Of a DNA stretch of 41,837 bases, positions 9,523 through 28,636 are shown piece after piece. The translations under genes were made by a program, and so were the position numbers. The number at the start of each line of letters is the position of its first letter. Position 1 is the first letter of the stretch. The stretch comes from a virus (taxonomy: Duplodnaviria; Caudoviricetes): the IMG/VR virus record IMGVR_UViG_3300017965_000005, positions 1 through 41,837 of that record; one strand, 5' to 3'. The notes under the pieces were generated by a model. The model was not told the origin of the DNA. It made no database searches and was given only the letters and a program-made list of their open reading frames with translations.

Positions 9523-9544
9523 AGATGGGAGGGGACAAGAAGAA

Positions 9545-10153: not shown

Positions 10154-10171
10154 AGCTAAATCTTTCCGCCA

Positions 10172-12260: not shown

Positions 12261-12261
12261 G

Positions 12262-12549
12262 TCAATCTCCTCTCTTTTCCAGGTGACCGAGCACCCGGAT
12301 ATTGATTCCATTTTGTGTATCGGACGCCTTCTCTATAACGGACAGGCGTGCGTTCAAGTCAGCCAGCGTCTTGATGGTTCCACGATAGTTCTGCTCGTTC
12401 TCCTTGAGGTCGCCCCTGATCTCGGCAAGCGTGTTCTGCACGGTCAGGAGGGCCTGGGCTTGCCGGCCGTTCGAATTGGCGATGAGAACGGCGCTCCCAC
12501 CTATGGAGATCGCCAACGTGATTGGAATGACCAGTTCTCTTCCTGTCAT
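12262..12549 (-). CDS. N-terminal TM plus coiled-coil protein (holin/i-spanin-like)
   Basis: SD GGAGGT; LVIPITLAISIGGSAVLIA then heptad repeats; lower GC. Confidence 0.65.
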   Translation of the reverse strand: MTGRELVIPITLAISIGGSAVLIANSNGRQAQALLTVQNTLAEIRGDLKENEQNYRGTIKTLADLNARLSVIEKASDTQNGINIRVLGHLEKRGD

Positions 12550-12563
12550 TTAAACCTCCGGCC

Positions 12564-15500
12564 TCATCTTCCTGCCCTCAACCGGCGCTTCGCCTTGCGC
12601 TTGGCGCCCTGGATCATGAAGCCGATGGCTTCGTCGTCGTAGCCGTTCTGGCGGAGGATCTGGATGATCTCCGTCTGACGGGGCGAGTCATTTTCGTAGA
12701 GAGCCTGGGCGAAGAGGTTCTCGGCCTTGTAGGTCGACATCCCCTTCGACTCCGGGATCGAGATGAGGAGCTTCCGGAGGACGTCACCCGGGTCCTCGGC
12801 GTCCTGGAGGGAGAAGGGGAGGGCCATCTCGGCCGTGGGCTCCAGGCGAGAGGCGATGTCCTCGACCGGTCCCGGCACCTCACCGGTCTTCTCGCGCTCC
12901 CTGACCAGCTCCTCATAGGGCGAGGGGAACTCGGTGACCGACTTCCCCATGAGGCCGGCTGCCGCCCCCACCCAGGGGCTGGTCTTGCCGGCCAGGAACT
13001 TCATCTGCTGCGCCCCCGGCGTCCCCCAGGCGAAGTGAGGCAGCTCCTGGGCATGCTTCCCGATGCGGTAGAAGATCTTCCTTCCCTTGTCGGTCCTGAA
13101 AGGGGTCTCCAGGTCCATCTTGTGGCCCTCTTCGTTCTCCCACGGGAAGTGCGGTCCCTGCTCCGAGCCGGCAGTCAGGGAGTAGTTGAGGACCGAGAAG
13201 CCGGCGGCGAGCGCCGTGATGTTCGTCCAGTAGGTACGGCCGATGACCCGATGAACCGGATCGGAGGAGAGGGGGGAGAGCCCCGAGCTGATGGCCGAGA
13301 CGTTCCAGTCTGGGGAGAGGAAGATGCGCCGCATCCACTTCAAGGCTCGCGGGTCCGAGAACAGCCGGTTCCTGCTCAGCTCCCAGACCTGACCGCCGAA
13401 GTGGTTGTTGATGCCGGAGGCGACGGCTTCGCCGATCTCCTCGTCGGTCATCGCGGCGAGACGCGCCCTGGTGCGGTCGGTCAAAAAACGATTCGCCACT
13501 CCGAGCGCTCCGCGATCGCCGTTCCTGGCCGCCATGAGCTGCGCCTCCCACTGCTCAGCCGCCGCGATCTTGATCGGGCTGTGGAGAATCTTCCAGATCG
13601 CTTCGTCGTAATAGGCGGCGGTGGCGCGGAGGCCCTTCCCGGCGGCCCCCGCTGCCCTCGCGACCGCGCCCGCCTTGCCGGCGGCGCGGGTCATCATGTC
13701 CTCCCAATCGACCATGGCCCGCTGGAAGGAGTCGGTCATCATGTCGGCCGATGGCGCCTCCACTCCGAGGCCCCTGCGGACCCACTTCTCGGCGACCTCA
13801 CGAGTGAAGGGACTCGCCCAGCCGCGGCGCTCGGCGAGCTGCGCGAGGCCCGGTATGCCGCCGCCTCTCGAGGCCCATGCCTTCGCTCCTTTGACCGGCC
13901 CCATTGACTGCATGGCGGCGAGGCCGAGCTCGAAGGGGTGGAAGATCGAGCCGAGGAACTTGATCCGCTTAACGGTCCCCAGGAGGCGGTCGATCTTGAG
14001 CGGCTCGGCGACGTCTAAGACCGGCTTCAGCTCCTCCCAGATCTTGGGGTGGATCCAGAGGTCCCCCGGGGTCGTCGGAGTCCGCGGCGGCCGGAAGGTC
14101 TTCGGACCGAGCCCCTCGGTCCCCGGGAGCGACGGCTGCTCGATGACGGAGGGAGCCGTCCCACCCTCCGGGGTGTAGCGGTAGAAGCCGCCGGCCGTCT
14201 CGGCGGCCCGGCGGCTCTCGGCCTGGAGAAGTTCTGCATGGCGGACAGCCTCGGGGAGGGCGCGAGAGCTGGTCGCTGAGCGCTGGGCGGCCTTCTCCAG
14301 GACCGGCACGCCGGAGACCCGGACGTACCCCTTCGGCTGCTTCCCCATCGTGGCATAGGTCAGAGCCGGCCTGCTGTCCTGAAGGAGGGGCATGGTCGCA
14401 AGGTCGTCGACCAGGCCGCGGATCGCCTGGGCATGGGCGAAGACCTTCTCGGTCTCGGCCCGGAGCTGCGAGAAGCGGAGCGTCCTGGGCGTCCAGCCGG
14501 CGGCCATCGCCTCGGAGGGATTCAGGAACGTCCGGGAACGGGTGAGTCCCGGCGTAGCGCCCACCGAGCCGAAGGACAGAGGATTGACCGTCTTCACCCC
14601 CTTCGGCGGCACGTAGGTCATGTGCATGTAGTTCTTGACGAACCCCAGGTCCCACATGTCGGAGAGATCGTCCCACATCTGCTTTGTCTGCTCGCGCCAG
14701 GAGGCGACCTCCTGAAGGGCGGACTCGGCGTTCGGGTCAGCGAAGATCTGCTCGACCACCCGCCGCTTGGCGCCGGGCCTCTTGGCGATCCGGGCCGCCA
14801 CCTTGGCCGGCCGGTTCGCGTAGGACCTCGGATCTCCCAGCTCGTGGAACATCCAGGTCAGGGCCTCGTCGGTCTCTTTCGGGATGAGCTTCTGAAGCTC
14901 CTCCGCCCTGGCGCCGGCGCGGTAGCGGCCGAGGCGCTCAGTCGCTGCGTACTCCTTCCGCATGTGCCAGGCCGCCTCTTTCGCTGCCGCGTCAGCGGGC
15001 GGCAGGGGATCCGGGCGGAGCTTGATGAACCCTGCCTCGTTCGATCCTGGGCGAGGCCCGAGAGGAGGCAACGCCAGCGGCGCCTCGGCGAGGGGCGGTC
15101 CTCCGAGCCCAGAAGATACTCCGTCAATTACCTTCGTTGAGTCGAGAAATGGAAGGGGAGCGCCTTCTTTTAGGGTGTCGAATGGACCACCCATATTAGC
15201 GAGCGCTTCTTCGGCGACTACTGCGTTTGCTATTGCACCATCGGGATGATGGAAGGTTACGCGGACCCGTTGAAGCTCGGGCCTGAAGGTAAAGTTTGCT
15301 CCTGTCGCCGAGACTTGATGACCAGGAAACATGCTGGCTATGTCGGACGCCGTCACTGTTCCCTTGTTCCTCTCGAAAGACAGGATCAAGTCATCACCAT
15401 TTAACTCTGCCGCGCGCAGTAAAGGAGAGCCTGCCAAGGCTTCATCCCTAGAGGTGCGGCTCAATCCGAGAGGAGGTGATGCTGCTGATGACGGCCGAAG

Positions 15501-17300
15501 GCCGTCGAGTGATTCCGCAACCTGACCACTGAGAGGAGGTGATGCCGCCGCCCCCAGGGCCTCCGGGCCTGAGGGGGCGGCCTCCAGGCCGCGGAATCCG
15601 CCGGTCCTTCGGTGCTCCTTGAGGTAACCGCGGGCCATGATGGACTCGGGGGAACCGTCATCAGGAATCTTGGCCAGTGCGTCGTCAATCCATTGATTTG
15701 GTTTACCCTCTACTGAACCGATTCCGTAACGATGCAGGGTCTTCCCGAGAAGCTTCTGCTGCGCCATGCTGATGCCGGCGTCATCGGTGATACTGGCGGC
15801 CGACTGACGTCGAGTCGCGTGTCGACGCCCAACCCGCTCCGCGGTCTCGATTTCTTCGGGGGATAACAAGCCTCGCCAATCTTTGAAGGTCCTGGCGTAG
15901 AGGTCGAGGTACGGAGAGCTTCGAGGCGTGCCGGACTTGGCGCGCGAGAGCTTCGCGACCTGAATATCCCCCTCCGCCACCAGGACGAGCGAATCGTACC
16001 CCTTGCCGTTGGCCCATTTGACCAGCGCCTCCTCCGCCTTGTTGAACGGAGCCTCCGGCGGGACGAGCCCCATTGCCTTGGCTGACTTGGAGGCGCTCTT
16101 GTTGAGGACGAGTGGATTCGCGGGCGTAAATGTCTCGGCGGCCAGGTTATTACCACCGAGGCCGGTGAGGTGCCGCGCATAGGCGGTCTGGTCACCGACC
16201 GCATAGAACCTAATTCCCTTCACCGCTCCCTGATCAGGCTTGCCGAGTTGCCACCTGGTGAGAGGCAGATCACGCAGCTCGAAGGGGAGGTCCTCGACCG
16301 AGATCGGCCCTGCCGGCACCTCCCTCGCCAGGCGGCGAAGGGCCTCCTCCGGGCCAAGGCCGCCGACGTTGCGCAGCCGCAGGCCGGGATTGACCGCTGG
16401 CGGGGCCTGTGACGCACGATCTCCCTGCTGGAGGTAGGGTGGGGTGGGCGCTGCATCCTCGGTCTCCTTGAGCCGCTGTAGGCCCAATTCCACCTTGTCC
16501 AGGCGATCCTCGTAGTACGCCTTGCGGTAGCCGGGGTAACGGTTCAGGTTGTCGCGCAGGAGAGCGTCTGCCTCGTCGAGGTCCTGGAGCTTCCCGTAGC
16601 CCTTCTGGAGGGCGGCCTCGGCGCGAGCTCCAAGACCTGGCCGCTTACCAGCCGCGATCGCCGCCTCCTGGGCGGCCTCGGAGAGAGCGCGGGGCGCCTT
16701 GCCGCCCCCAGCGAGGGTTGGATCAACCAGCATGCCGGCCATGGTGGCGGCCTGATGGACGCCTACGGCAACCGGGGTCGGGAGATCCAGCGTGGCCTCG
16801 GCGAGGCGTCCCCTCGCCTCCTCCGTCCAGCGGCGGGTCGTATCAGCGACCGGGGCCAGGGGATCAAGCTTCAGGAGCCGCGCCTCATGGCTGTCCTGGA
16901 TGGCCTCAGCCATCGAGGGGTTGCCGAAGAGCTGCATATAGGCATCCGCCCGCTCGCTCTTCTTCTGCCGCCCTTTCGGGTCGAGATTCCCCGCCCCCCT
17001 CTTCAGGGTGTCGGCGGTCGCATTGAGCACCAAGCTCGGGAGGCGGGCGGTGCCGACGTTGACGTCGGCCGCCGTCGCCCCGGCGAGGCCGAGGGCGTCC
17101 TTGGCGATGGCGGGAAGAGAGGTGTTAGGGACCGGCACGGCGGTCGTGGCACGCTGGCCGCCCGGGACCTGCTTCAGGCGGCGCTCACCGGTCCTCGTGT
17201 TGACGAGAAAGATTCCCTCCTGGACCCATTCCGGGCCGGCGAGGGCGGGGTCGAGAGCTGGCCGGCTCGCCCCGAAGAGAGTCTGGTACCGGTCAGGCAT
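12564..17300 (-). CDS. Large internal virion/DNA-ejection protein (~1578 aa), polyvalent-protein-like
   Basis: Size and position after two other ejection-type genes; helical Ala/Gly-rich C-half; ATG 17300 overlaps bridge ORF stop (frame is open up to 17441). Confidence 0.75.
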   Translation of the reverse strand: MPDRYQTLFGASRPALDPALAGPEWVQEGIFLVNTRTGERRLKQVPGGQRATTAVPVPNTSLPAIAKDALGLAGATAADVNVGTARLPSLVLNATADTLKRGAGNLDPKGRQKKSERADAYMQLFGNPSMAEAIQDSHEARLLKLDPLAPVADTTRRWTEEARGRLAEATLDLPTPVAVGVHQAATMAGMLVDPTLAGGGKAPRALSEAAQEAAIAAGKRPGLGARAEAALQKGYGKLQDLDEADALLRDNLNRYPGYRKAYYEDRLDKVELGLQRLKETEDAAPTPPYLQQGDRASQAPPAVNPGLRLRNVGGLGPEEALRRLAREVPAGPISVEDLPFELRDLPLTRWQLGKPDQGAVKGIRFYAVGDQTAYARHLTGLGGNNLAAETFTPANPLVLNKSASKSAKAMGLVPPEAPFNKAEEALVKWANGKGYDSLVLVAEGDIQVAKLSRAKSGTPRSSPYLDLYARTFKDWRGLLSPEEIETAERVGRRHATRRQSAASITDDAGISMAQQKLLGKTLHRYGIGSVEGKPNQWIDDALAKIPDDGSPESIMARGYLKEHRRTGGFRGLEAAPSGPEALGAAASPPLSGQVAESLDGLRPSSAASPPLGLSRTSRDEALAGSPLLRAAELNGDDLILSFERNKGTVTASDIASMFPGHQVSATGANFTFRPELQRVRVTFHHPDGAIANAVVAEEALANMGGPFDTLKEGAPLPFLDSTKVIDGVSSGLGGPPLAEAPLALPPLGPRPGSNEAGFIKLRPDPLPPADAAAKEAAWHMRKEYAATERLGRYRAGARAEELQKLIPKETDEALTWMFHELGDPRSYANRPAKVAARIAKRPGAKRRVVEQIFADPNAESALQEVASWREQTKQMWDDLSDMWDLGFVKNYMHMTYVPPKGVKTVNPLSFGSVGATPGLTRSRTFLNPSEAMAAGWTPRTLRFSQLRAETEKVFAHAQAIRGLVDDLATMPLLQDSRPALTYATMGKQPKGYVRVSGVPVLEKAAQRSATSSRALPEAVRHAELLQAESRRAAETAGGFYRYTPEGGTAPSVIEQPSLPGTEGLGPKTFRPPRTPTTPGDLWIHPKIWEELKPVLDVAEPLKIDRLLGTVKRIKFLGSIFHPFELGLAAMQSMGPVKGAKAWASRGGGIPGLAQLAERRGWASPFTREVAEKWVRRGLGVEAPSADMMTDSFQRAMVDWEDMMTRAAGKAGAVARAAGAAGKGLRATAAYYDEAIWKILHSPIKIAAAEQWEAQLMAARNGDRGALGVANRFLTDRTRARLAAMTDEEIGEAVASGINNHFGGQVWELSRNRLFSDPRALKWMRRIFLSPDWNVSAISSGLSPLSSDPVHRVIGRTYWTNITALAAGFSVLNYSLTAGSEQGPHFPWENEEGHKMDLETPFRTDKGRKIFYRIGKHAQELPHFAWGTPGAQQMKFLAGKTSPWVGAAAGLMGKSVTEFPSPYEELVREREKTGEVPGPVEDIASRLEPTAEMALPFSLQDAEDPGDVLRKLLISIPESKGMSTYKAENLFAQALYENDSPRQTEIIQILRQNGYDDEAIGFMIQGAKRKAKRRLRAGR

Positions 17301-17667
17301 GGAGGAAGAGATGAGATTCGGAAGGAACGTTCCCGTCCCGGAATTTGATCGACCGATCCGCTCGACCAAGGAGGTCGAGCTTGCGGCCGAGGTGGGGGTC
17401 GCGAGGGCGCAGTATGCGGCGGTCTCCGCCCTGGCCGGCATCTATCGCGAGGCGCTTCGCATCCTGGCGAAGGGCCTCCTCGAGGCCGCCTCCGGTACCC
17501 TGGAGGGGCCGGACATCGAGGTCCTTCTGGAGAAAGCGGAATTGATCTTCTGGACGGAGTACGACCCGGACAACCCCGTCCATCGGGGGGCCTTCCTTGA
17601 ATTTGAGGTCTTTCAAGGGGACCGGGTCTGGCTGGCGACGGACTTCGCCCAGGAGCTGCTCAAGCAC
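17293..17667 (-). CDS. Bridge ORF 2 (124 aa), antisense to 17311..17769
   Basis: SD GGAGGAG; GTG overlaps upstream stop (GTGCTTGA); own stop overlaps downstream ATG (ATGCCTGA). Confidence 0.5.
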   Translation of the reverse strand: MLEQLLGEVRRQPDPVPLKDLKFKEGPPMDGVVRVVLRPEDQFRFLQKDLDVRPLQGTGGGLEEALRQDAKRLAIDAGQGGDRRILRPRDPHLGRKLDLLGRADRSIKFRDGNVPSESHLFLHA

Positions 17668-17769
17668 GGGCTCCTCCCTGCGCCGCCATCCGGATGCGGG
17701 CCAGGATCGACTGCGCCGTCATCCCTTTCTGAAGCTCCTGACGGACAAACGTCTCCTGCTCCGGAGTGA
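17311..17769 (+). CDS. Hypothetical protein (152 aa), antisense within late operon
   Basis: SD GGAGG at 17301-17305; globular-looking core; last 110 nt overlap gene 17660..19069. Confidence 0.7.
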   Translation: MRFGRNVPVPEFDRPIRSTKEVELAAEVGVARAQYAAVSALAGIYREALRILAKGLLEAASGTLEGPDIEVLLEKAELIFWTEYDPDNPVHRGAFLEFEVFQGDRVWLATDFAQELLKHGLLPAPPSGCGPGSTAPSSLSEAPDGQTSPAPE

Positions 17770-19069
17770 GGGAGCCGAAGCTCTGGCGGACGAGGGAGAG
17801 CTTCCGGTCGACCTGCTCCGGGTTAGGTCTCACCTGGGCCTTCCCGCCCTCGCCGCTTGAGGCGGCGGGGCGGACGTCCGGGCCGGCGGTCGGGGCCTCA
17901 CGAGGACGGTCAAGGTTGGCCTGCTTCCGCGCTCCGGGCGGCTTCCAGTTGGGCAGCGGGATCGGGGTCCGGTTGCCGTTCTCGTCCGGGAAGACGGGCC
18001 AGAGAACCCCCTTCTCGGTGTCCTCGTAGTACTTCTTGGTAGAGATCCCGTCCCCCTGTTCGATGATCCGCATCGGGGGCTTCTTCTCTTCCTGCTGGGG
18101 CTTGGTGGGGTAGGCCGAGGCAGGGATGCCGCTGGCTGGCGTCCACTGCCCCTCTGGGCCGCGCTCGAAGACGCCCGTAGGCGTCTCTATGGTCTGCGGG
18201 CGCTCCGGCCTCTCAGGGCCGCTGGGGGCGAAAAGATACCCGTTGCCGGCGCGCCACTTCAGATCCTCCCGGTTCCCTTGGCGCTCGATCTCCTGCTTCC
18301 GCTTCCAGTCCTCGAAGTCGGCAGCCCTCTGCGCCTCCTCTTCGGCCTCCTTCTGGGCCTGCGCCTCGCGGTCGGCGACGACCTTGCGCCAGTCCGGCTG
18401 AGCCAGGGGGTCGAAGCCGGCAGCTCTCGCCGCGGCGTAGTCGGGGAGCTTCTGGTAGAGGGAGGCGAGGTCATCCATCTGCCCCATGCGAGCGTAGGTG
18501 TCGGCGAGGTCCGCGAGGGCGGGCTCCGCCTCGGCGACCTTGTTCGCCATCCCGGCCAGAGAGTTGGCCGCCTGGCGCTCCTTAACGCCCTGGGCCTCGG
18601 CCTGGGCCTGCTGCTGGCGGGCGGTCGCCTCGGCGATCTGCGCCTGCCAGTCCGCCTCCCGGCGGGCGGTCTCCTGGGCGAGCATCTGCTCCCTGCCGCC
18701 CTGGACGTTCTGGGCCGCCTCCCCGAGGGAGACGGCGATCCCGGGACCGCGGCTGTTGGCGCCCTGGGAGAATGCCATCCCGACCTGAAGGATGATGTCC
18801 GCCCGGAGCTGCTGGCGCTGCTCCGGCGTCAAGTCCGCCATCTGGGCGGGCGTCGGCATGGCGATCGTCGGTGGCGCCTCTGGCTGCCCTTGGTAGAGGT
18901 CATCGGCCGAGAGTTGAGCTCGCTGCGGCTGGGGCGGCAGGGTGGCGCCCGAGAGGTCCGGCATCCAGTCTTCTGGCGGGTTGCCAAAGGCCGAGAAGCC
19001 GCCCTCCTCGCCGCCGTAGGTGTCGAGCCCGAAGTCGCCGCCGTAGAAGTTGAATCCCGGGAACGCCAC
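17660..19069 (-). CDS. Internal virion/ejection protein (469 aa)
   Basis: Gln/Ala-rich coiled coil; position between ejection genes. Confidence 0.7.
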   Translation of the reverse strand: MAFPGFNFYGGDFGLDTYGGEEGGFSAFGNPPEDWMPDLSGATLPPQPQRAQLSADDLYQGQPEAPPTIAMPTPAQMADLTPEQRQQLRADIILQVGMAFSQGANSRGPGIAVSLGEAAQNVQGGREQMLAQETARREADWQAQIAEATARQQQAQAEAQGVKERQAANSLAGMANKVAEAEPALADLADTYARMGQMDDLASLYQKLPDYAAARAAGFDPLAQPDWRKVVADREAQAQKEAEEEAQRAADFEDWKRKQEIERQGNREDLKWRAGNGYLFAPSGPERPERPQTIETPTGVFERGPEGQWTPASGIPASAYPTKPQQEEKKPPMRIIEQGDGISTKKYYEDTEKGVLWPVFPDENGNRTPIPLPNWKPPGARKQANLDRPREAPTAGPDVRPAASSGEGGKAQVRPNPEQVDRKLSLVRQSFGSLTPEQETFVRQELQKGMTAQSILARIRMAAQGGARA

Positions 19070-19072
19070 GGC

Positions 19073-20713
19073 TCATCCCTTTCCGTAGGTCTGCTGGTAG
19101 GCGTTGCCGAGACTCCAGCCGGCGGCGGCCCCGCCGACCGCCGCGGCTCCGGAGTTGATCGAGCCGAGGCCTGAGGGGGTCTGCCCGAAAGTCCGGCTCG
19201 TCCCGCCGCGGTCGGAGGCGTTGACGATGTCCATGTAGCGCGACAGGTCCATGAAGGGGACGTCGTGCTGGTAGCGCTGCTGGTCGAAGGCGAGGCGCTG
19301 GTTGGTCGCGTTGACCCCGGCCCTCGCGGCGTCGGCGTTCCTCTTCCCGATGTCGAAGCTGTTGCGGTTCTGGTCGGAACCGAGAGAGAGCTGGCCGGCC
19401 GCTGTCCAGTCGCGCATGCTGAGGCCGGTGATGTCAGGGGTGGCGCCCAGAGCGAAACGCTGGTCCTGGCCGTAGAGGTCGGCGAGGGAGCCCATGGCCG
19501 AGGACCTGAATTCATTCTGGCGCTGTCCCATGCCGACCGCGTTCTGAAGGGCGTCCAGGCGGGCGAGGTCCATCTGGCCCCTGAGGGCCGCGGCCGAGGC
19601 CCCGGCGGCGTTCGAGGAGTTGGCGGCCGACTGTGCCCGGTCCTCGGATGCGATCTTCTCGCGGCTGTTCCTGTCGAGGTAGGCGGTGTCGTAGCCGGTC
19701 CCCAGGTCGAGGCCGTGTTGGTAGAGACCGTAGTCCGCCATCGCGAGCGAGTCGCCGAGCTCGCGGGCCGAGGTGGTGTTCACGTCCCCCAGGGCCTGCG
19801 TCCAGTTGGACGAGCCCATGTTGCCGTTACCGACGTAGAGCCCCATCTTGTCGGCGATCCGCTTGTTCCACTCTTCCTCGTTCCTGCGGGCGATGGCGTC
19901 CTTGACGTTCTGGGGGGCGCCCTGACCGGCGAGGAGAGCCTTGATGTCGTCGACGACGCCGACCGGCCCCTCGGTGGGGCTGGGGGTGTAGGTCGGATTC
20001 GAGGCGTAGGCCGAGTTGACCGTGCCGTAGTGGACCTTGGGGCCGCCGCCTGTGGCGGCGCCACCGCGCGGCCGGGCGCCCTCGACGTCCGCGAAGAGCA
20101 TGTCCTTCAGGCGGCGGATGTCCGGATCATCCATCCCGCGGACCATGTCGGCCGTCTCGGTCCTGTAGCCGTTCCTGTCTTGGCCGGCCAGGGTGTCCGA
20201 GATGAAGTCCTCGGCCTCGCCGTAGAGGGGGTTGCCCTTCTGAGCCTGCTTGACGGCGGCATCGACGACGGTCCTGGTTTGGTCAGATTGCCCTGTCCAC
20301 TTCCCGTCCGGGGCCTGGCCTGGCTTCCCTGGCTTGAGCGGATCGGTGGGTTTCTTGCCCCCCTTCCCGCCCTTGCCGGTGGGCTTCGGGATGACGGTCT
20401 TGCCGTTCGTGTAGACGACGTTCGGGTCGGGATTGCCGCCCGGATTCGGACCGCCACTCCCGGCCGGCCCCTCGCCTGGCCGGTTGCCGGGACTGCCGTT
20501 GTTATAGGGTCCCTTCCAGGCCGGCGTTGGATCGTTCGGATTGAGGATGCCGTATGCCTGCTGCATCGCCCAATTCCGGTATCCGGCGGACTGGTCGGAG
20601 GGGGAGGTCGTGGTCGTCACGTCCGTCCAGCCACCCTTGGCGTTCTGCTTGTTGGCGTCGTCAGCGCCCTTCTTCGATATGTAGGCGCCTGCGATTGCCG
20701 CGAGCCAGGCCAT
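19073..20713 (-). CDS. DNA pilot/ejection protein (P22 gp7/gp20-like position)
   Basis: SD GGAGGT; TGATG coupling; N-terminal WLAAIAGAY, Gly/Ala/Asn/Gln-rich, C-terminal GAAAVGGAAAG. Confidence 0.75.
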   Translation of the reverse strand: MAWLAAIAGAYISKKGADDANKQNAKGGWTDVTTTTSPSDQSAGYRNWAMQQAYGILNPNDPTPAWKGPYNNGSPGNRPGEGPAGSGGPNPGGNPDPNVVYTNGKTVIPKPTGKGGKGGKKPTDPLKPGKPGQAPDGKWTGQSDQTRTVVDAAVKQAQKGNPLYGEAEDFISDTLAGQDRNGYRTETADMVRGMDDPDIRRLKDMLFADVEGARPRGGAATGGGPKVHYGTVNSAYASNPTYTPSPTEGPVGVVDDIKALLAGQGAPQNVKDAIARRNEEEWNKRIADKMGLYVGNGNMGSSNWTQALGDVNTTSARELGDSLAMADYGLYQHGLDLGTGYDTAYLDRNSREKIASEDRAQSAANSSNAAGASAAALRGQMDLARLDALQNAVGMGQRQNEFRSSAMGSLADLYGQDQRFALGATPDITGLSMRDWTAAGQLSLGSDQNRNSFDIGKRNADAARAGVNATNQRLAFDQQRYQHDVPFMDLSRYMDIVNASDRGGTSRTFGQTPSGLGSINSGAAAVGGAAAGWSLGNAYQQTYGKG

Positions 20714-21744
20714 CAGCACACCTCCCGGAACCAGCCGATCACATCAGGCCCGCTCGGCTGCCGGATGCAGCCGCGGGCCTCGAAGCCGTAGCGAGGCGCC
20801 CGCCGCTCCCAGAAGGGGAGCGTCGAGAGGAACATGAAGCCATTCAAGCCGTGCCGCCTCGCGACCGCGAGGGCGGCGTCGAAGTACTGACCCACGAGGC
20901 CACGGCCTCGATATTCAGGGGCCACCCATAAGAGGTGGCCCTGGAGGTAGTCATGAAAGACAGAGACGACATCGAACAGGGGTGGAGCGAAGCGACGGAG
21001 GGTCTCGCTGGAGACCTGCTCGACATTCTCGACGGGGTGACGGCCAACATCAGGCTGCGGCACCTGGCCCGCCTCTTCTACCGGGAGGGCTGGGAGGACA
21101 AGGCGCTCAAAGATTTCTCTCGGCTTCTCCGGCGCGCCATGAGGGACACCAAGAAAGAGATCCAGCAGCCCGCTCCCGAGGCCGCTCCGGAAGAGATCGA
21201 GCGCCCCCTCGACGGGGGCGCCGTCGATCAGGGCGTCGCTGGTCCTGCTCCACTCGGCGAGGCCCCTCTCGATGAGAGGCCAGAAGTCGAAGGGGTTGGC
21301 GGCGCAGGCAAGCTGAAGTCCCACTCTTGGAGCGGGGGACTTTACGACTTCACAGCCAACGAACATGGCCCCCTGCTGTATGGCCCCCTGGGTGAAAACC
21401 CTCCCTATCCGACTGTCGTCCTCTCCGGTTCTTACGGAGCGCTGGTCAACGCCGAGATCCTCCGCCTGGCGAACCGGGTGAGGGACCTGGAGTTTCAACT
21501 GGCCGGAGAGATCATGGCCCATCAGGGGTCGAAGATGGTCGCCGAGGAACGGATCGAGGAGCTGGAGACAAGGAATCACAGCGTCGAGGCCAGCGCCGAG
21601 GTGATCTGCTCCCTCAAGGATGATCTGGCTCTTCGCGTCGGCACGCTGGAGGCGGTGCTTCGCACAGTCGCCAGCGATCTGGACCCCTATGCCGGCTTCG
21701 TCGCCGGGCCGATCGTTCGAGGGGTGCTGCACCGAATCGATCAA
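20713..21744 (-). CDS. GNAT-fold virion-assembly protein with N-terminal extension (bridge ORF 3)
   Basis: SD GAGGAG, TTG 9 nt after upstream stop; acetyl-CoA motif A LWVAPEYRGRGL and motif B FW..RYGF; GNAT-like genes commonly lie between podophage tail and ejection genes. Confidence 0.7.
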   Translation of the reverse strand: MIDSVQHPSNDRPGDEAGIGVQIAGDCAKHRLQRADAKSQIILEGADHLGAGLDAVIPCLQLLDPFLGDHLRPLMGHDLSGQLKLQVPHPVRQAEDLGVDQRSVRTGEDDSRIGRVFTQGAIQQGAMFVGCEVVKSPAPRVGLQLACAANPFDFWPLIERGLAEWSRTSDALIDGAPVEGALDLFRSGLGSGLLDLFLGVPHGAPEKPREIFERLVLPALPVEEAGQVPQPDVGRHPVENVEQVSSETLRRFAPPLFDVVSVFHDYLQGHLLWVAPEYRGRGLVGQYFDAALAVARRHGLNGFMFLSTLPFWERRAPRYGFEARGCIRQPSGPDVIGWFREVC

Positions 21745-21882
21745 GCTCTCTCCTCAACTCGGCTCGTAGAGAATCCAGGCGACGTTGCCGGCATCGGCCG
21801 CGACGGCGCTCGTGATGGTGAAGGAGGTACCGACAACCCGGGCCGTGTTGGCGAGGGCGCCGACAACCCCCACGGCGTTTGA
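20953..21882 (+). CDS. Hypothetical protein (309 aa), wholly overlapped by late genes
   Basis: SD GGAGGT; helical N-domain and coiled coil ILRLANRVRDLE..RIEELE..LEAVLR. Confidence 0.65.
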   Translation: MKDRDDIEQGWSEATEGLAGDLLDILDGVTANIRLRHLARLFYREGWEDKALKDFSRLLRRAMRDTKKEIQQPAPEAAPEEIERPLDGGAVDQGVAGPAPLGEAPLDERPEVEGVGGAGKLKSHSWSGGLYDFTANEHGPLLYGPLGENPPYPTVVLSGSYGALVNAEILRLANRVRDLEFQLAGEIMAHQGSKMVAEERIEELETRNHSVEASAEVICSLKDDLALRVGTLEAVLRTVASDLDPYAGFVAGPIVRGVLHRIDQALSSTRLVENPGDVAGIGRDGARDGEGGTDNPGRVGEGADNPHGV

Positions 21883-22536
21883 AAATGCATACACCCTGGT
21901 GTTGGCCGTCACGCTCGTGTTGGCCACCACCAGGAGGCCTGCCGCCATCACCCCCACGCCCATGCGGGCGTTCGCCCCCTCTTTGATCCGGAGGCCCGCC
22001 CCGGTCCGGGCAAGGATGTGGTTCCCGGAGGTGTCGTAGCGGGCCGCCTCGACGTTGTTCGTGCCGAGGACGAGGGGGGTGCTGTTCAAGGTCCCCACCG
22101 CGAGGCCGCTTCCGAGGGCCGTGCCACAGAAGCTCCAGGAGGCCGGGGTGAAGCCGAAGATCGTGGCGGCCGAGTAGGCCGAGCCGAAGACGATCAGCTC
22201 GGCGCGGCCTACGTTCGCCGCCACGCGGAGACGGGCGTCGGCGCTGGTACCGGTCGAGACGTTCTGGACCACGGCGATCGTCGCGGCGTTCTGGTCGACG
22301 TGGACGTCGAGGGGCTGCGTCGGGGAGGCTCCGACCCCGAGCCGCTGGTCGTTCAAGGTCGTCGAGACGATGGCCTGGCCGCCGGAGCGGCCGGCCTGAA
22401 GGACGGCGCCCCCGGTCGCCCCGGTCTCCAGGTTCTGGATGTCCCTTTCCGCCTGCCGGAAATTGTGATCCCACCAGGACTGTACCTGGGAAAGATCGAA
22501 GAGCTTCCCGAGAAGGCGGAAGCGGCCGGCACTCAC
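21754..22536 (-). CDS. Tail fibre/spike-like protein (260 aa)
   Basis: SD GGAGGT, GTGA coupling; RLGVGASPTQPLDV and PLVLGTNNVEAARY fibre-type repeats. Confidence 0.75.
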   Translation of the reverse strand: MSAGRFRLLGKLFDLSQVQSWWDHNFRQAERDIQNLETGATGGAVLQAGRSGGQAIVSTTLNDQRLGVGASPTQPLDVHVDQNAATIAVVQNVSTGTSADARLRVAANVGRAELIVFGSAYSAATIFGFTPASWSFCGTALGSGLAVGTLNSTPLVLGTNNVEAARYDTSGNHILARTGAGLRIKEGANARMGVGVMAAGLLVVANTSVTANTRVYAFSNAVGVVGALANTARVVGTSFTITSAVAADAGNVAWILYEPS

Positions 22537-24185
22537 GGTACAACCTCCCATGCGATCCAGAGTCCCGGCATTGCCCGCAGCTCGGTTCCGGCGGTGTTCG
22601 GAAGCTGGAGCTCGAAGTACTGCCAGGCTCCCTGACTCTCGACGAAGGGGAAGAGAGAGGTGTCCTCATCGGCATTACTGACGAACGTCGCCGTCTCCTG
22701 GCGCGGGTTGACGATCGTCGCTCCGCTCATGACGGTCTTGAAGTTCGGATCATTTGAGGTCGTGACAGTGACGCTCAGAGCCGCCGGCAGAGGCTCATAG
22801 GAACCAGGGGCCGGAACGCCCGTGAAGCCGACCTCGGTCGAAACGAGAGGGATCGCTCCGGTGATCCTCACGGGGGCAGCGACGGGGGCCTCCTGCTGCG
22901 TGAGAGCGAGGGCCTGCTGCCGAGTGACGAGCCGGGCGGTGAAGACGACCGACCGGGAGAAGGTGAAGCGGTAGGAGCTGGTCCCGGCCTGGGTCGTCGC
23001 GACGATCCCGGCAAGGGTCTCGGTCGTCGACGGAGTCGGCAAGCTTCCCAGGGTGCAGACCGAGGTCGTCGTGCCGGCCTCGCCGACGCCATTCCAGGTC
23101 GTGAACTCGCCGGTCACGGTCGAGTAGAAGATGCCCCTGGTCTTCGTCGCGACGCCGTCCGAGAGGCCACGATAGGCCCAGAAAACAACTCCGGTCTGGG
23201 GGTGGTAGGTGCCCTGCACCCAGAGATCCTCCTCGGTCATCGTCGAGGGGACCGAGCGGTTGACGGCGCCGGGCGAGAAGTCGACATCTGCCAGCCAGGC
23301 CGAGATGGCATAGGGGCTGATCCGCTCCGGCGGGTTCATTCCTACCTGCTTGTAGAAGTAGTAGTCCTGGCCGAGGAAGTAGATCGCTCCCTGGTCCCCG
23401 CGGACGACCGAGGAGGGCCAGTTGGTGCCGACGTTGTCGGCCAGGACATCCTCCCTCCAGGTGCCGCCGTTCGTACCGGTGACGTCACCGGTGAACTGGA
23501 GGGCATGCATCGAACCACGCTTCAAGACCCTGGCGAACTCGCCACCCACTGCCCGCATGATCTGGCCCGGGCGGCTCCGGATGAAGCCGGTGCCGCCGCC
23601 GCCCGACGCGGCGGCGTCCCAGACCGCCGGGTTTCCCGGTACGCTCCAGGCGTAGGCATCGGGGCCAAAGGTGGCGTTTGCGAGGTCGAAGGCCATCATG
23701 TAGTTCTTGACGACGCAGATGTCCCGCGCGATCGGCTTGAAAGTCGAGGTCGTCGTACCGTCGACGAAGCTCCCGGTGTTGCCGGCGCGGACCTGGAGGT
23801 TGTCGATCCGGTTCGTGTACCAGACGTCGTTTCCGAACGACGCCCACCGGCCGGCGGGCGGCTCGCCAGCCGCGGCGAGCCCGCTGCGGATCGAGGTCCA
23901 GGTGTTCGCTGTCCGGTTGTAGACATAGATGTTCGTCTTCGAGCTGTGCAGCTCGGTTGACTCATCGCCAACATAGGAAGCTGCCGAAGGGTTCGCGGGC
24001 CAGATGTGGGCGTAGACCGAATTGAGGGCCGAGTCGGCGACCGTGTTCGCGCCGGACTTGAGCCCCCCTTCCAGGGGGCGCTTGACGCCATAGGCCGGAA
24101 CGACGTTCTCGGCCAGCGCCAGTCCGTCTCCGTGCTCGCCGGCCCCCCACTGAAGGGTACCAAAGTCGATGAAGGTCAGAGGCAT
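22533..24185 (-). CDS. Tail nozzle/head-stabilisation protein (P22 gp10/T7 gp12-like)
   Basis: 550 aa, beta-propeller-like Trp/Gly strands; GLALAENVVP N-terminus; synteny after adaptor. Confidence 0.75.
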   Translation of the reverse strand: MPLTFIDFGTLQWGAGEHGDGLALAENVVPAYGVKRPLEGGLKSGANTVADSALNSVYAHIWPANPSAASYVGDESTELHSSKTNIYVYNRTANTWTSIRSGLAAAGEPPAGRWASFGNDVWYTNRIDNLQVRAGNTGSFVDGTTTSTFKPIARDICVVKNYMMAFDLANATFGPDAYAWSVPGNPAVWDAAASGGGGTGFIRSRPGQIMRAVGGEFARVLKRGSMHALQFTGDVTGTNGGTWREDVLADNVGTNWPSSVVRGDQGAIYFLGQDYYFYKQVGMNPPERISPYAISAWLADVDFSPGAVNRSVPSTMTEEDLWVQGTYHPQTGVVFWAYRGLSDGVATKTRGIFYSTVTGEFTTWNGVGEAGTTTSVCTLGSLPTPSTTETLAGIVATTQAGTSSYRFTFSRSVVFTARLVTRQQALALTQQEAPVAAPVRITGAIPLVSTEVGFTGVPAPGSYEPLPAALSVTVTTSNDPNFKTVMSGATIVNPRQETATFVSNADEDTSLFPFVESQGAWQYFELQLPNTAGTELRAMPGLWIAWEVVP

Positions 24186-24207
24186 GGATTCTCCAGGATC
24201 AAAAGCA

Positions 24208-24717
24208 TCAAACCGTTACCCATGTACCGGTCTGAGTTGAAGCTGCCCACATATTTGTGTTGACGTATTCCAGGACGATATAGCTGCCCTTGGTTGATGA
24301 CTTGACTATGCCACCAGCCAACGAAGCGACGCTGCCGGCGTAGATGACGTGCGATCCCTGGGCCTGAACAGTCAGCTCGTCGGTCCCCAGAATGACGAAG
24401 GCGTACCAAGCCCCGGGAGCCGGAGCAGCCGGCAGGGTGACTTCATCACTGCCGCCGCCCACAATGATCGAGACAGTCCTGCCAATATCCGCGGCGGCGA
24501 GGGTGATGCCACCGGCGCCCGCCCGACGCGCCCTGAGAGCACCAGAGAGGGCGTTCGCATCGTCGATCAAGACGCCTGTCGCTTGCACTGTCGCGCCGCC
24601 AGTCCCATCTGCGCGGAGAATGGCATTGTCGGTCGAGCCCGTCGAGCCGCCGATGCCGCTCCCGCTGCCCCCACCGGCGAGGCCAGGTGGCGTCTCGCCG
24701 CCCCAGAAGAACCTCAC
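24208..24717 (-). CDS. Minor structural/fibre-like protein (169 aa)
   Basis: GTGA coupling; GSTDNAILRADGTGG and VTLPAAP..G..Y fibre motifs. Confidence 0.7.
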   Translation of the reverse strand: MRFFWGGETPPGLAGGGSGSGIGGSTGSTDNAILRADGTGGATVQATGVLIDDANALSGALRARRAGAGGITLAAADIGRTVSIIVGGGSDEVTLPAAPAPGAWYAFVILGTDELTVQAQGSHVIYAGSVASLAGGIVKSSTKGSYIVLEYVNTNMWAASTQTGTWVTV

Positions 24718-25061
24718 GAGATCGCCGCCTTTCGGCAGGAGACAATCACCCAGCAGGCGGTCGCGTTGAAGAACGAGAGCACCTGCCCCGGGGCAACCGA
24801 GAAGCTCTCACCCTGCATGACAGGCTCGGCCGCCGTGCCGTTCGTGACCGCCGCGCTGGGAGCGGCGGCGGTCGTTCCGGAGGCGTTCACGTAGAGGAGG
24901 CCGGCGGAGTACTTGACCCGAATGTGGTTGACTCCGGTCGGTACCGTGAAGGCACCGGCCGTCCCAGGGGCCGTGTTCAGGTCGACGACCTGGTTGTACT
25001 TCGAAACCGGAGGAGTGTCGGCCTGCGTCCTCCGGTTGATCGCAACGATCTCAGCAGCCAT
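24714..25061 (-). CDS. Small structural protein (115 aa)
   Basis: SD AGGAGG; beta-rich. Confidence 0.75.
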   Translation of the reverse strand: MAAEIVAINRRTQADTPPVSKYNQVVDLNTAPGTAGAFTVPTGVNHIRVKYSAGLLYVNASGTTAAAPSAAVTNGTAAEPVMQGESFSVAPGQVLSFFNATACWVIVSCRKAAIS

Positions 25062-25070
25062 TCTACCCTC

Positions 25071-25799
25071 CTACTCGTGCGTCCAGTACCGGTTGCCCCA
25101 GAGGCGCCGGTCGTCGGTTTCGTTGCCTTCCACGCCCGTCCAGGCCGCGCGGGCCTGGCCGGAGGGCTTGACGTGCTGCCGGCGCTCCTCGAAGAGAGAG
25201 AAGAGAGCCTCGTCTCCCGAGACCTTGGCAAAGCCGGCGCGGCCCTGGTCCTGGAAGAGCGGGGTCTTGTAGAAGATCTCCAGGGTCTTGTGCTTCAGGG
25301 CTTCGAGGCCGGCGTCGAACCAGTCGTTGGTCTGGGTCGTCGAGGCTGTCGTGATGAGGACCCCGTCCGCCGTGTTCCGGCGGGCGTCCTTCGTGTAGTC
25401 GAGGTAGAGGACGAGGGCGCTGTTCGGCGGCGGCCCGAGGTAGAGCTTGCGGTCGTGCCAGGAGCGGCCCCGCGGGTACATCGTCGAGACCTCGTCCATC
25501 CAGAAGCGGAGCTCGTCCATGCTGACCTTGTTGATCTCGATCGGCTGCGACCCCACCTTGTAGTAGAGCCGCCGGACCTCCAGAAGGTCCTTGGGAAATC
25601 CGGTAGTCGTGCTGTCGTAGGTCGCCTGGCTGGCGACTGTCGTGAAGCTCGCCTCGTCCTCGGTGAATGTGGTCTTCTCCTTCGAGAGGAAGGTGAGGGC
25701 CTCGACGATCGACTGCTTGAGGATCGTCGAGGTCTTCGAGGTCTTCACGCTAATCTGCGCATAGAGCAGATCATGCAAAGATGTAAACGTCTCAGCCAT
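25071..25799 (-). CDS. Head-to-tail adaptor (T7 gp11/P22 gp4-like)
   Basis: Size, synteny, FPKDLLEVRRL..YPR..LYLGPPP..LYLDY pattern. Confidence 0.75.
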   Translation of the reverse strand: MAETFTSLHDLLYAQISVKTSKTSTILKQSIVEALTFLSKEKTTFTEDEASFTTVASQATYDSTTTGFPKDLLEVRRLYYKVGSQPIEINKVSMDELRFWMDEVSTMYPRGRSWHDRKLYLGPPPNSALVLYLDYTKDARRNTADGVLITTASTTQTNDWFDAGLEALKHKTLEIFYKTPLFQDQGRAGFAKVSGDEALFSLFEERRQHVKPSGQARAAWTGVEGNETDDRRLWGNRYWTHE

Positions 25800-26451
25800 A
25801 ATTCACCATCCAGAAGGAGGATGAATGTTCAAAGCACTGGATCTGTTCTGTTGTGCTGGCGGAGCCTCGGAGGGCCTCCGCCGCGCAGGCTTCGAAGTGA
25901 CCGGCGTCGACATCCGGCCGCAGCCCCACTACTGCGGGGACACCTTCGTGCAAGCCGACGCCCTGGAGTTTCCACTGGAAGGGTACGATCTCATCTGGGC
26001 GAGCCCTCCGTGCCAGGCATTCACGGCCTACAAACGACGACCATCCCATGTCGCGCCGTGCCAGAACCTGATCCCGGCGGTGCGGGAGCGCCTCGCTGGT
26101 TTGCCCGCGTTGACGATCATCGAGAACGTCCCTGGAGCACCGCTGCGCCGCAACTTGATGCTCTGCGGATCGATGTTCGATCTGAGCGTTCGCCGCCACC
26201 GCCTCTTCGAGCTCAGCTTCGAAGCCATCCAACCGACGTGTCGGCACCAGGATCAGGCGCCGCGATTCCCGCCGGCCTCGAACCGTCACAGCCTCCGGCG
26301 TACGGTCGAGGTAGGTGTCTGGAGGATTCCCCTGGAGGTACAGCGGGCCGCCATGGGGATCGACTGGATGACCCGCGAAGAGCTCTCGCAGGCCATCCCG
26401 CCCGCCTACAGCGAGCACATCGGTCGATGCGCCATGGCGGCTCTTGATCAC
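25792..26451 (-). CDS. Bridge ORF 4 (219 aa), antisense to the methyltransferase
   Basis: SD GGAGGT 8 nt before GTG overlapping upstream stop (GTGA); stop overlaps adaptor ATG (ATGGCTGA). Confidence 0.5.
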   Translation of the reverse strand: MIKSRHGASTDVLAVGGRDGLRELFAGHPVDPHGGPLYLQGNPPDTYLDRTPEAVTVRGRRESRRLILVPTRRLDGFEAELEEAVAANAQIEHRSAEHQVAAQRCSRDVLDDRQRGQTSEALPHRRDQVLARRDMGWSSFVGRECLARRARPDEIVPFQWKLQGVGLHEGVPAVVGLRPDVDAGHFEACAAEALRGSASTTEQIQCFEHSSSFWMVNYG

Positions 26452-26469
26452 CGGCCAGGACCTCCGTAG
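25825..26469 (+). CDS. Short DNA (cytosine-5) methyltransferase
   Basis: Motif I DLFCCAGG, IV WASPPCQ, VI IIENV, X-like QAIPPAYSEHIG; SD AAGGAGG. Confidence 0.88.
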   Translation: MFKALDLFCCAGGASEGLRRAGFEVTGVDIRPQPHYCGDTFVQADALEFPLEGYDLIWASPPCQAFTAYKRRPSHVAPCQNLIPAVRERLAGLPALTIIENVPGAPLRRNLMLCGSMFDLSVRRHRLFELSFEAIQPTCRHQDQAPRFPPASNRHSLRRTVEVGVWRIPLEVQRAAMGIDWMTREELSQAIPPAYSEHIGRCAMAALDHRPGPP

Positions 26470-26960
26470 GCGACCCACTCGTCGACCCCGGCGGCCGGCG
26501 TGGTCGCCGCCGCCAGGACCTTGTAGCCGAGGACGGCCCAGCCGCCCGGGTTGGGGACCTGGAGGCCGGCTCCGCCGGTCCCCAGGATGATCGACTCGAC
26601 CGCGGTGACCGCGGCGGAGAAAGGGGCGTTAGCGGAGGCGTCGTAGACGGTGACCTCGCCCGCCACGGCGCCCAAGGCGTCGTAGTACCACATGGTGAGG
26701 TCCATGTTCAGGGTGGGGCCACCGGTGTCGTGGTCGGCCGTGCGGAGGCGCTCGATGCGGTTGAGCCAGCCGCCGCCCGGGAGAGCCATGAGGGCGACCC
26801 GGTCGCCGATGTCGTCGACCGAGGTCGCGGCGATGGTCAAGCTGACCTGCTCCGACCAGAATGCGTCGCGCTTGTAGGGGCGCGACGCGATCGGGCTGAA
26901 GCCCTGGGTGTTCGAGGTGTCGGCCTGGAAAAGGCTGGAGTATGCGGTTGCGGCAGCCAT
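26448..26960 (-). CDS. Capsid decoration/cement-like protein (170 aa)
   Basis: 3 nt after capsid stop; SD GGAGG; beta-sandwich-like. Confidence 0.7.
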   Translation of the reverse strand: MAAATAYSSLFQADTSNTQGFSPIASRPYKRDAFWSEQVSLTIAATSVDDIGDRVALMALPGGGWLNRIERLRTADHDTGGPTLNMDLTMWYYDALGAVAGEVTVYDASANAPFSAAVTAVESIILGTGGAGLQVPNPGGWAVLGYKVLAAATTPAAGVDEWVAYGGPGR

Positions 26961-26963
26961 GGC

Positions 26964-28145
26964 TTAAGCCTCCGTGGTCGCTTCCGTGTAGGAGTGATAG
27001 ATGGCCGAGCCGAAGCTCTCGCCGTCGATGTGGAGGCGCTTGAAACCGAGGCCGGTGTGGTACTTGATCGACTCCCGCTCGTGCTCCATGTCCGAGGTGT
27101 AGTCGACGTGGTTGCCGTTCTCGTAGCCCTTCATCCACCAGAGCAGCGCGGCATGGCTCCCGAGGATGATGTTGGGCTGGCAGTTGGCGACGATGCCGGT
27201 CGCCGGAGTCGTCGCGTTGGCCGCGACGCCGTCCGCGGCGAGGGGCAGCCACTCGGCCGCCACGTAGATGACGTCGTTGACCGACTTGATTGCCGTGGTC
27301 TTCGAGAGGGCGCTGTTGTCGAAGCCCATCCCGCCGGCCATCTCGGCCAGGTCGATCTTCTCGAACTTCGAATCCGGGTCCGAGAACTTGATCTGGTTGA
27401 TCCCCTCCTGCGTGGTGACGCAGAGGAAGCCGGAGCCGAAGGCGGCGAGGTTCATCTTGGTCAGGGGCCACTTGACGCCGAAGCGCTTGGTGGTGAGCTT
27501 GGCGATGAAGCGTGCGACCCCGACGTCCGAGAGGATCGCCGAGCTGTCGGCGGCTACGGCGGCAGTCGTGGTGAGCGGGGTCCCGGAACCCGAGTCGGCG
27601 AAGCCGATGTGCCGGGTGTCATAGTGCGTCACCTGGTTCATCCCGGACATCTTGTGGTCCGGGTAGTGGGAGAGGCCGGTGAAGGTCGTCCCCGAATTGT
27701 AGCGGGTGTCACCGGCCAACTGGCGGTAGAAGCTCCGCTCCATCCATACCGCCGTCGAGTCGTTGGCGTTCTTCCACTGCTCGTCTTCGAGGTTGCGCTC
27801 CGTGCGCTGCTGGTCGCCGGTGCCGTGAGTCAGGTAGAAGTCGTAAGGGGAGCAGTACTCGCAGAGGATGCGGAACTTCAGGGGTTCCGGGGCCGAGCGC
27901 TCGACGCCGATGACCGGCTCGTTGCGGCTCTTGGGGACCGGGTTGTTGTCGGTCAGGCGCATGAACAGGAACTCCTGCTCCAGGCCGGGCCGGCCGCCTT
28001 CGTCGTCGATCTCGATGATGGGGGCCTGAGACTTCCGATCCCCCCTGAGGAAGAAGAGGAGCTGAGGAAGCTCGCTCTCCCAGGTGGTTGTGTAGGAATT
28101 GAGCACCCTCGCCCATTGTGAGGATGCGGGAACGGTCGGTGCCAT
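26964..28145 (-). CDS. Major capsid protein (393 aa)
   Basis: Position after portal/scaffold, size, own promoter; fold not verified. Confidence 0.8.
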   Translation of the reverse strand: MAPTVPASSQWARVLNSYTTTWESELPQLLFFLRGDRKSQAPIIEIDDEGGRPGLEQEFLFMRLTDNNPVPKSRNEPVIGVERSAPEPLKFRILCEYCSPYDFYLTHGTGDQQRTERNLEDEQWKNANDSTAVWMERSFYRQLAGDTRYNSGTTFTGLSHYPDHKMSGMNQVTHYDTRHIGFADSGSGTPLTTTAAVAADSSAILSDVGVARFIAKLTTKRFGVKWPLTKMNLAAFGSGFLCVTTQEGINQIKFSDPDSKFEKIDLAEMAGGMGFDNSALSKTTAIKSVNDVIYVAAEWLPLAADGVAANATTPATGIVANCQPNIILGSHAALLWWMKGYENGNHVDYTSDMEHERESIKYHTGLGFKRLHIDGESFGSAIYHSYTEATTEA

Positions 28146-28318
28146 GCGGCTTCTCTCCGTGTCTCCCGGCGCGTGGCCGGGAGGTTCCGTCAGTTCTCGG
28201 AGCTGTCGGGGAGGGCCTCCGTACCCCTCAGGCGCGTGGCCTGGGAGCCCGTTTTCCTTGGAGGGAGGAGCCCGGGGCGCGGGGCCTCTGCCGCATGGCA
28301 GGTAAGCTACGTGTTACC

Positions 28319-28348
28319 AGGATACACTGGTACCAAGAAGGGAGTCAA
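28319..28348 (-). promoter_or_regulatory. Sigma70-like capsid operon promoter
   Basis: TTGACT-18-TATCCT; -10 lies within GGTACC-N10-GGTAAC inverted repeat. Confidence 0.65.
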
Positions 28349-28351
28349 CCA

Positions 28352-28636
28352 TTGTCTCGTCCAGCTTGTCGAAGCTTTGAGGGCTGCCGTGGGGATGGGT
28401 GGGAGTACGACCTGTGCGATTCAGGGTCCGGCCACACAGTCTACTGTGGCTGTGCGGCCGGTGTCGATCTGATGCGCGCGGAGACCGCTACGCCGACCGC
28501 CGCCCCAGGTCCCGAATCTGACCCAGAAGCCCCCGCTGCACCTTCGGCCAGTCCGATCCCCAGCGACGGGCCCCCTCTTTCTGGACCTCGATCATCCCCT
28601 GACGCTGCCCCTTCTCGGACAGGGTCTTCGTCATGA
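28352..28636 (+). CDS. Small Cys-rich protein, antisense between scaffold and capsid
   Basis: SD AAGGGAG before TTG; CRGDGW..VYCGCAAG; tail overlaps scaffold gene by 149 nt. Confidence 0.5.
   Translation: MSRPACRSFEGCRGDGWEYDLCDSGSGHTVYCGCAAGVDLMRAETATPTAAPGPESDPEAPAAPSASPIPSDGPPLSGPRSSPDAAPSRTGSSS

Follow-up and report, generated by a model that had tools for sequence, protein, structure and literature searches.

Evidence for alternating constraint between a long GNAT gene and an antisense coiled-coil gene in a phage late operon

Introduction

When antisense frames stay open largely through codon use, how can one tell whether both strands of a phage late operon encode proteins, and which strand is under constraint at each point? 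One locus in the virus record IMGVR_UViG_3300017965_000005 (Duplodnaviria; Caudoviricetes) raises this question. The record was analysed over its whole stretch of 41,837 nt, a single contig with ~66% guanine plus cytosine (GC), hereafter the window. A minus-strand open reading frame (ORF) assigned to the GNAT acetyltransferases (21744-20713, 343 aa, start TTG) and a plus-strand ORF (20953-21882, 309 aa, start ATG) share 792 nt, codon opposite codon, an arrangement known as the -0 frame. The locus is a real feature, a variant of antisense gene overlap, and the constraint on it very probably alternates between the two strands from segment to segment. A first reading of the letters alone (the sequence-only reading) had proposed the GNAT ORF, the plus ORF with its own GGAGGT Shine–Dalgarno (SD) sequence, and an alternation that sets the plus modules opposite the least protein-like minus parts and the plus linker opposite the GNAT N-lobe. 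Both ORFs are confirmed at these coordinates, and the alternation is borne out by identities, homologues and wobble GC. The further claim that late genes wholly overlap the plus ORF holds for nearly all of it, with 9 nt (21745-21753) uncovered.

Results

Openness of the antisense frame

As described in PMC8903798, any pair of sequences can be encoded in the -0 frame without a stop, and this frame holds the longest antisense overlaps in viruses. In the window, antisense stops lie opposite only 33 of 6316 late-gene codons (0.5%) and 20 of 3583 early codons. At late-gene codon use, a 309-codon antisense frame (a shadow) is expected to be open ~20% of the time, and the shadow of the 725-codon portal gene is open throughout. 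Because so few codons give antisense stops, two long frames are expected here; the plus ORF does not exceed the length expected from codon use, ORF length was discarded as an argument for the overlap, and the case must rest on conservation. Helical periodicity is likewise unusable as a strand test, by the reasoning that it is mirrored between the strands in the -0 frame.

The long GNAT of the minus strand

The GNAT ORF (20713-21744) begins at a TTG 9 nt past the stop of the upstream gene, behind an SD-like GAGGAG that overlaps this stop (21750-21755, minus strand; -7.2 kcal/mol), and its end overlaps the following gene, a putative ejection gene, in a TGATG. Its segments differ sharply in conservation, the identities being means over the 21 pairs of seven long GNAT proteins. 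The N-extension (21301-21744, 148 aa, opposite plus module 2) is variable, with a mean identity of 37%, a length of 84-148 aa across the seven proteins, and a predicted local distance difference test score (pLDDT) below 50. The N-lobe candidate that follows (21151-21300, 50 aa) is conserved at 84%. A variable in-frame insert of 59 aa (20974-21150; 51-74 aa in the relatives), opposite plus module 1, reaches 28%, and the C-lobe (20716-20973), with an acetyl-CoA-binding motif, reaches 90%. The first strand of the C-lobe lies antisense to the plus start and the plus SD. PF00583 matches residues 266-308 at 21.5 bits against a curated cut-off of 20.7, a cut-off passed by three of the seven proteins, the other four scoring 17.9-20.6. 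A GNAT structure in the PDB matches the C-lobe with E 0.005, and the PHROG acetyltransferase matches are weak (E 0.002 and above). Searches with tblastn against 50,697 phage records gave nothing significant for the GNAT, the plus ORF or segments of either, and the N-lobe has neither a profile nor a tblastn match.

Screening 8000 candidates of 188-601 aa yielded six GNAT relatives, 278-332 aa in length and all of the long form. None of 93 candidates of 30-187 aa matched, so the homologues without N-extension and insert that the sequence-only reading expected did not appear. Among the relatives, the insert and the N-extension are exchanged in frame and both lobes are retained. The same pattern is visible in a relative's contig of 25,128 bp, probably the source of the GNAT relative P0014 and thus not independent of it: the lobes are kept, and three stretches are swapped, 194 nt giving way to 239 (+45), 139 nt to 88 (-51), and 211 nt to 94 (-117), each change a multiple of 3. 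Nine of the 14 changed lobe codons listed for this contig are silent in the GNAT frame, the list omitting differences near piece ends; five of the 14 lie inside the overlap, where three are minus-silent, one is plus-silent and one is neither.

Modules and homologues of the plus strand

The plus ORF has a full-length homologue, P0009 (56%), and starts behind a GGAGGT (20943-20948) whose -10.7 kcal/mol ranks among the best 3.5% of 2709 NTG sites. All seven GNAT proteins have an invariant His opposite the plus start, so that the plus strand must read ATG or GTG there. Module 1 (20953-21153), predicted to be helical, is exchangeable among relatives, where at least two non-alignable types occur, and shares 50 of 67 residues with P0009. 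The linker, rich in Pro, Gly and Glu (21154-21303), is the shadow of the GNAT N-lobe and has a shadow-like composition and a pLDDT below 50. Module 2 (21304-21750), a predicted coiled coil, is related to the N-terminal part of P0010, P0017 and P0018 (333-470 aa; E 4e-21, 2e-6 and 1e-5), which start where module 2 starts, contain neither module 1 nor the linker, and to judge from their sequences are apparently stand-alone coiled-coil homologues. The tail (21751-21882) lies opposite the end of the upstream tail gene, whose shadow it is, and 14 of its 18 substitutions are possibly minus-silent. In the predicted model of the plus product, one long helix spans residues 160-246, with a pLDDT of ~71-87 over residues 171-270.

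The pairing of the two strands can be followed beyond the window. P0009 has a plus frame open from end to end, and its other strand is compatible with both GNAT lobes, at 161 of 200 and 298.5 of 344 possible points (scores without a shuffle control). Conversely, the reversed N-extensions of five of the six GNAT relatives fit the module 2 homologues beyond all 30 shuffles; this fit owes much to one helix block, and P0016 does not show it. The core helix block of module 2 is kept in all eight loci, with its flanks exchanged.

P0010, P0017 and P0018 form a modular coiled-coil family in which shared blocks are shuffled and for which neither Pfam nor PHROG gives a significant match. From this modular form, our best guess is that the plus protein is a host-interacting coiled-coil accessory protein. 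The plus product does not match the Pfam domain of the Ead/Ea22-like proteins (PF13935), and its Atlas score of 0.80 is a lead only, as are all Atlas leads, none of which reaches 0.9.

Alternating constraint

The GC of third codon positions changes its favoured strand at each segment. Given as plus-third/minus-third, the values for the GNAT lobes are 0.68/0.86 (C-lobe) and 0.68/0.90 (N-lobe), those for modules 1 and 2 are 0.83/0.69 and 0.76/0.70, and the plus tail has 0.63/0.85. Substitutions in the insert point in the same direction: 87 of 138 over four non-independent pairs are possibly plus-silent, against 120 of 251 in ordinary late genes, and in the pair P0011/P0015 the figure is 26 of 31, against 10 +/- 2.5 under simulated neutrality. 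Good conservation of both strands at the same place is confined to the region of the plus start; elsewhere, each strand looks like a passenger wherever the opposite one is conserved. Selection or homology on both frames is thus found segment by segment only, on the minus strand in the N-lobe and on the plus strand in the modules, by protein-level proxies and not by the ratio of nonsynonymous to synonymous rates (dN/dS). Both strands carry homologous segments, and neither of the outcomes that the sequence-only reading had named as contrary to it, homologues on one strand alone or a decayed GNAT, is seen.

Several observations weigh against this account. The predicted GNAT model is poor (mean pLDDT 38, with only residues 283-343 mostly above 50). 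Accordingly, of the plausible N-lobe that the sequence-only reading placed at ~21320-21150, the conservation stands and the fold is unconfirmed by the model, and both this fold and the loop position of the insert rest on a reading of motifs. The insert was placed in a hairpin loop from the order of GNAT motifs as we take it to be. On the plus strand, separate phage homologues had been expected for both modules; module 2 has the three named above, and for module 1 no stand-alone homologue was found. The homologues of module 2 are also much longer than the module itself, and the upstream tail gene dictates where it stops. The relatives were gathered through long minus-strand proteins (188-601 aa), a choice that favours open frames, and the plus frames of the six GNAT relatives were deduced from protein alone. 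Among the substitution tests, the insert pair P0001/P0012 (14 of 27) lies above simulated neutrality yet does not stand out against the 48% empirical control, the plus linker (10 of 16) shows no excess over the same control, and four N-extension pairs show none either (48 of 94, P 0.63). Amino-acid composition is intermediate, parts the strands weakly, and does not alternate cleanly in all relatives. No sigma-70-type promoter was found in 20000-22800, nor on the plus strand in 9400-29000, with a consensus that may not be the host's. A possible fourth plus ORF, small and Cys-rich (~28296-28636), lies in a 342-nt gap before the capsid gene and has stops in its shadow frame. Finally, no empty site was present among the relatives found; hence the insertion origin proposed below is something we infer.

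Rival readings and the start of the GNAT

The GNAT alone might be functional, the plus ORF being unexpressed recombination debris of a coiled-coil gene that the GNAT keeps open. Open shadows are the rule in this genome, module 2 is truncated relative to its homologues, no plus promoter matching the sigma-70 consensus was found, and several substitution tests do not exceed the empirical control, all of which suit debris. Yet debris would hardly keep a plus ATG with so strong an SD opposite an invariant His, a wobble GC that favours the plus strand in both modules, the excess of possibly plus-silent changes in P0011/P0015, or the core helix block of module 2 despite its swapped flanks; moreover, an intact methyltransferase gene nested in the same manner (below) makes plus-strand expression in the region likely. 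We consider debris improbable. Still less probable is that the inserts are spliced out of the GNAT message or bypassed by the ribosome to leave a compact protein of ~150 aa. Without insert and extension, the GNAT would have an ordinary size, and the N-lobe has a terminator-like hairpin at its end (21186-21164, minus strand), a count not above chance (one found, 1.3 expected). Against this stand the lack of any Rfam match in 16500-27000 and of informative repeats at the segment boundaries, as well as the inserts themselves, which are 51-74 codons long, unrelated and always in frame, although skipping would not need the minus frame. That the GNAT is a decayed remnant broken by a single real plus gene is scarcely credible. 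Gene callers did pick the plus ORF in this genome, and the Pfam cut-off is reached by a minority of the proteins, but lobes 84-90% identical, mostly GNAT-silent codon changes and an ORF intact in seven of seven proteins largely refute this idea; on these sequences, the GNAT is not decayed.

A narrower question is where the GNAT starts. Both genes could be real with an internal GNAT start at GTG 21324 or ATG 21366, giving a translated overlap of ~370-410 nt and leaving the N-extension as an unused shadow. All seven long proteins have Val or Met 7-9 residues ahead of the N-lobe, where an ancestral start is possible, and the N-extension appears unconstrained. However, TTG 21744 has the best SD of the 14 in-frame starts, with no stop between, as opposed to -5.0 kcal/mol at ATG 21366 and 0 kcal/mol (no SD) at GTG 21324. 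The Val or Met is accounted for by a conserved His close to where the stand-alone plus homologues begin; in P0009, module 2 has no His at all, which rules out an ATG or GTG on the minus strand opposite this module. An upstream N-terminus is common to four of the seven long proteins, and the relative's contig has no change listed at 21740-21766, the region of the GNAT start and SD. Hence the internal start seems unlikely, if less so than the rivals above, and the long GNAT from TTG 21744 is provisionally ranked ahead of it.

Discussion

A proposed origin by backward insertion and read-through

On balance, the sequences lean towards plus modules inserted backwards and read through by late ribosomes as passenger sequence, which would explain the interleaved overlap. 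Plus-strand modules would have entered backwards, one behind an existing late ribosome-binding site, just past the GNAT start, and another into a GNAT loop. Under GC-rich codon use the -0 frame has hardly any stops, so a backward insert could survive, and it would do so only if downstream translation were kept. At the GNAT locus, the shadow frame would fuse in frame to the downstream gene, and at the two other nested loci described below it would end on the start codon of the next gene. The plus modules would afterwards be exchanged in frame among relatives. In the present state, translation of the GNAT from TTG 21744 would yield 343 aa, including a loop insert and an N-extension that is disordered, and the protein may act as an IVP-A-like assembly acetyltransferase. 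The plus gene would be made from ATG 20953, probably early, and its protein would join a helical module to a coiled coil via the antisense of the GNAT N-lobe. Our guess is that the plus genes are transcribed by read-through from the early plus-strand operon.

If this model is true, the locus may be a natural interleaved sense-antisense pair in which the domains of each strand are the linkers of the other, and it would reveal an undescribed way for phages to add cargo within essential gene clusters. Long antisense overlaps, usually explained by overprinting, would have a second route, in which existing genes are inserted and filtered by read-through. The idea of bridge ORFs, set out below, matters for understanding gene uptake by GC-rich phages whose operons stay intact, and for designing entangled genes. 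Since gene callers annotate a single strand, the plus strand in this genome and the minus strand in the six relatives, either the assembly gene or its cargo goes unseen at loci of this kind. A literature search, with most subscription papers outside its reach, gave no report of interleaved antisense modules or of shadow bridge ORFs in a late operon. Scans of viral contigs and genome contigs gave no related DNA locus, and a metagenome scan returned the window's own record only.

Further nested loci in the late operon

Two more plus-strand genes are nested against the late operon, both noticed after the fact. One is a C5 cytosine methyltransferase gene (25825-26469; phrog_363, E 7e-33), found in 313 phage records and also in a relative; the candidate bridge ORF over it (25792-26451, minus strand) starts with a GTGA overlap and a GGAGGT (SD -10.7) and ends in an 8-nt overlap with the adaptor gene. 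The other gene encodes 152 aa with no homologue found, including by tblastn (17311-17769; SD -9.3; plus-third GC 0.82). The candidate bridge ORF over it (17293-17667, minus strand) has an SD of -10.0 at the upstream stop and ends in an 8-nt overlap on ATG 17300, the start of the 1578-aa gene, which has no SD. Each of the two plus genes begins just behind the start of a late gene, and both bridge ORFs are in the -0 frame, their starts being the strongest SD-bearing ones at those gene ends. At all three nested loci, an SD-bearing start of the shadow frame lies at the upstream stop, for which the chance is 1.6% per site (0.5% at -10). A shadow stop on the next gene's start has a chance of 4.5-7.6% per site, and openness alone one of 0.3-0.5. 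In other phages, all four homologous methyltransferases checked have 1-5 antisense stops. Perhaps, then, the stop-free antisense frame serves this lineage as a kind of cargo bay at several points of its late operon, the shadows being filler or bridge peptides that couple downstream structural genes; we put this forward tentatively, with less confidence than the read-through model itself.

At the possible fourth plus ORF, the minus strand has two weak promoter matches (28467 and 28348).

Comparison with known systems

The podophage acetyltransferases of the IVP-A or T7 gp13 type are described as small and non-structural (PMC4819975, PMC6775973). The present gene resembles them as a GNAT-family gene of the late operon situated between tail genes and large putative ejection genes, a likeness that rests on gene position, the homology evidence being the PHROG matches already mentioned. 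It differs in its size of 278-343 aa in all seven proteins, with a variable N-extension and insert instead of a small single domain. The designation "virion gene" in the sequence-only reading is unsupported, the syntenic podophage acetyltransferase being described as non-structural (PMC4819975).

Antisense gene pairs have been reviewed (PMC7457138). As in phage Fc02 gene 10 and olg1, two proteins would be encoded here on opposite strands of one phage locus; that pair, however, is short (olg1, 7.9 kDa), lies in the lysis-lysogeny region and has demonstrated expression, and the available account describes no domain-by-domain alternation or module exchange (PMC9936078). The Pseudomonas aeruginosa pairs olg1/tle3 and olg2/PA1383, which overlap by 957 and 1536 nt and have selection reported on both frames, resemble the present pair as long antisense overlaps of GC-rich DNA. 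In those pairs a young ORF is overprinted in an old gene, whereas here modules with outside homologues occur on both strands and are exchanged, and neither gene is wholly the mother gene (PMC8850804). Morons in the late operons of P22-like phages, of which the ant moron is an example, are similarly variable non-morphogenetic cargo, and the variation among related phages that marks them is found here in the exchanged modules. Morons are usually expressed independently, and those of P22-like phages occupy one site, unlike the three sites found here, with no promoter found and the cargo lying under open late frames (PMC2629481). The bridge ORFs recall termination-reinitiation coupling in their stop-start overlaps of 1, 4 or 8 nt and an SD inside the upstream gene, except that the coupling ORF would here be the antisense shadow of another gene (PMC6728339).

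Genome setting

The minus strand carries a P22-like portal (PF16510), a large terminase and an SU10-type adaptor (PF24175), and because of these genes the window reads as a podophage, with a late operon running leftwards from ~36100 to 9500 and early genes on the plus strand. The single run holding the whole stretch is a soil metagenome, and the habitat may be soil. The GNAT ORF is flanked by a tail-fibre-like gene on one side and by three large genes on the other, the latter putative ejection genes from gene order only. Its 550-aa and 546-aa neighbours have no family match, and their roles were assigned from gene order with the portal and adaptor identified upstream, so that an IVP-A position between tail tube B and IVP-B is putative. 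The capsid gene gave nothing significant by tblastn against the phage records.

The tail-fibre-like gene (21754-22551, minus strand) contains a K1-lyase C-terminal domain (PF24146), and its likely start is GTG 22536 (4-nt overlap, SD -10.9), not ATG 22551. ORFs of ~50 codons at 29649-29808 and 31963-32115 (both minus strand) occupy the portal-scaffold and terminase-portal gaps, so that the late operon is almost wall-to-wall ORFs. Within the 1578-aa gene, GC falls to 0.61 at 15001-16000, where an acquired domain is possible, and the same gene contains 19 of the 33 antisense-stop codons counted across the late genes. A strong terminator-like hairpin lies at 9492-9516 (minus strand), where late and early transcription are expected to converge, and a near-consensus sigma-70 promoter match (11 of 12) is located in the early region at 37914-37943 on the plus strand.

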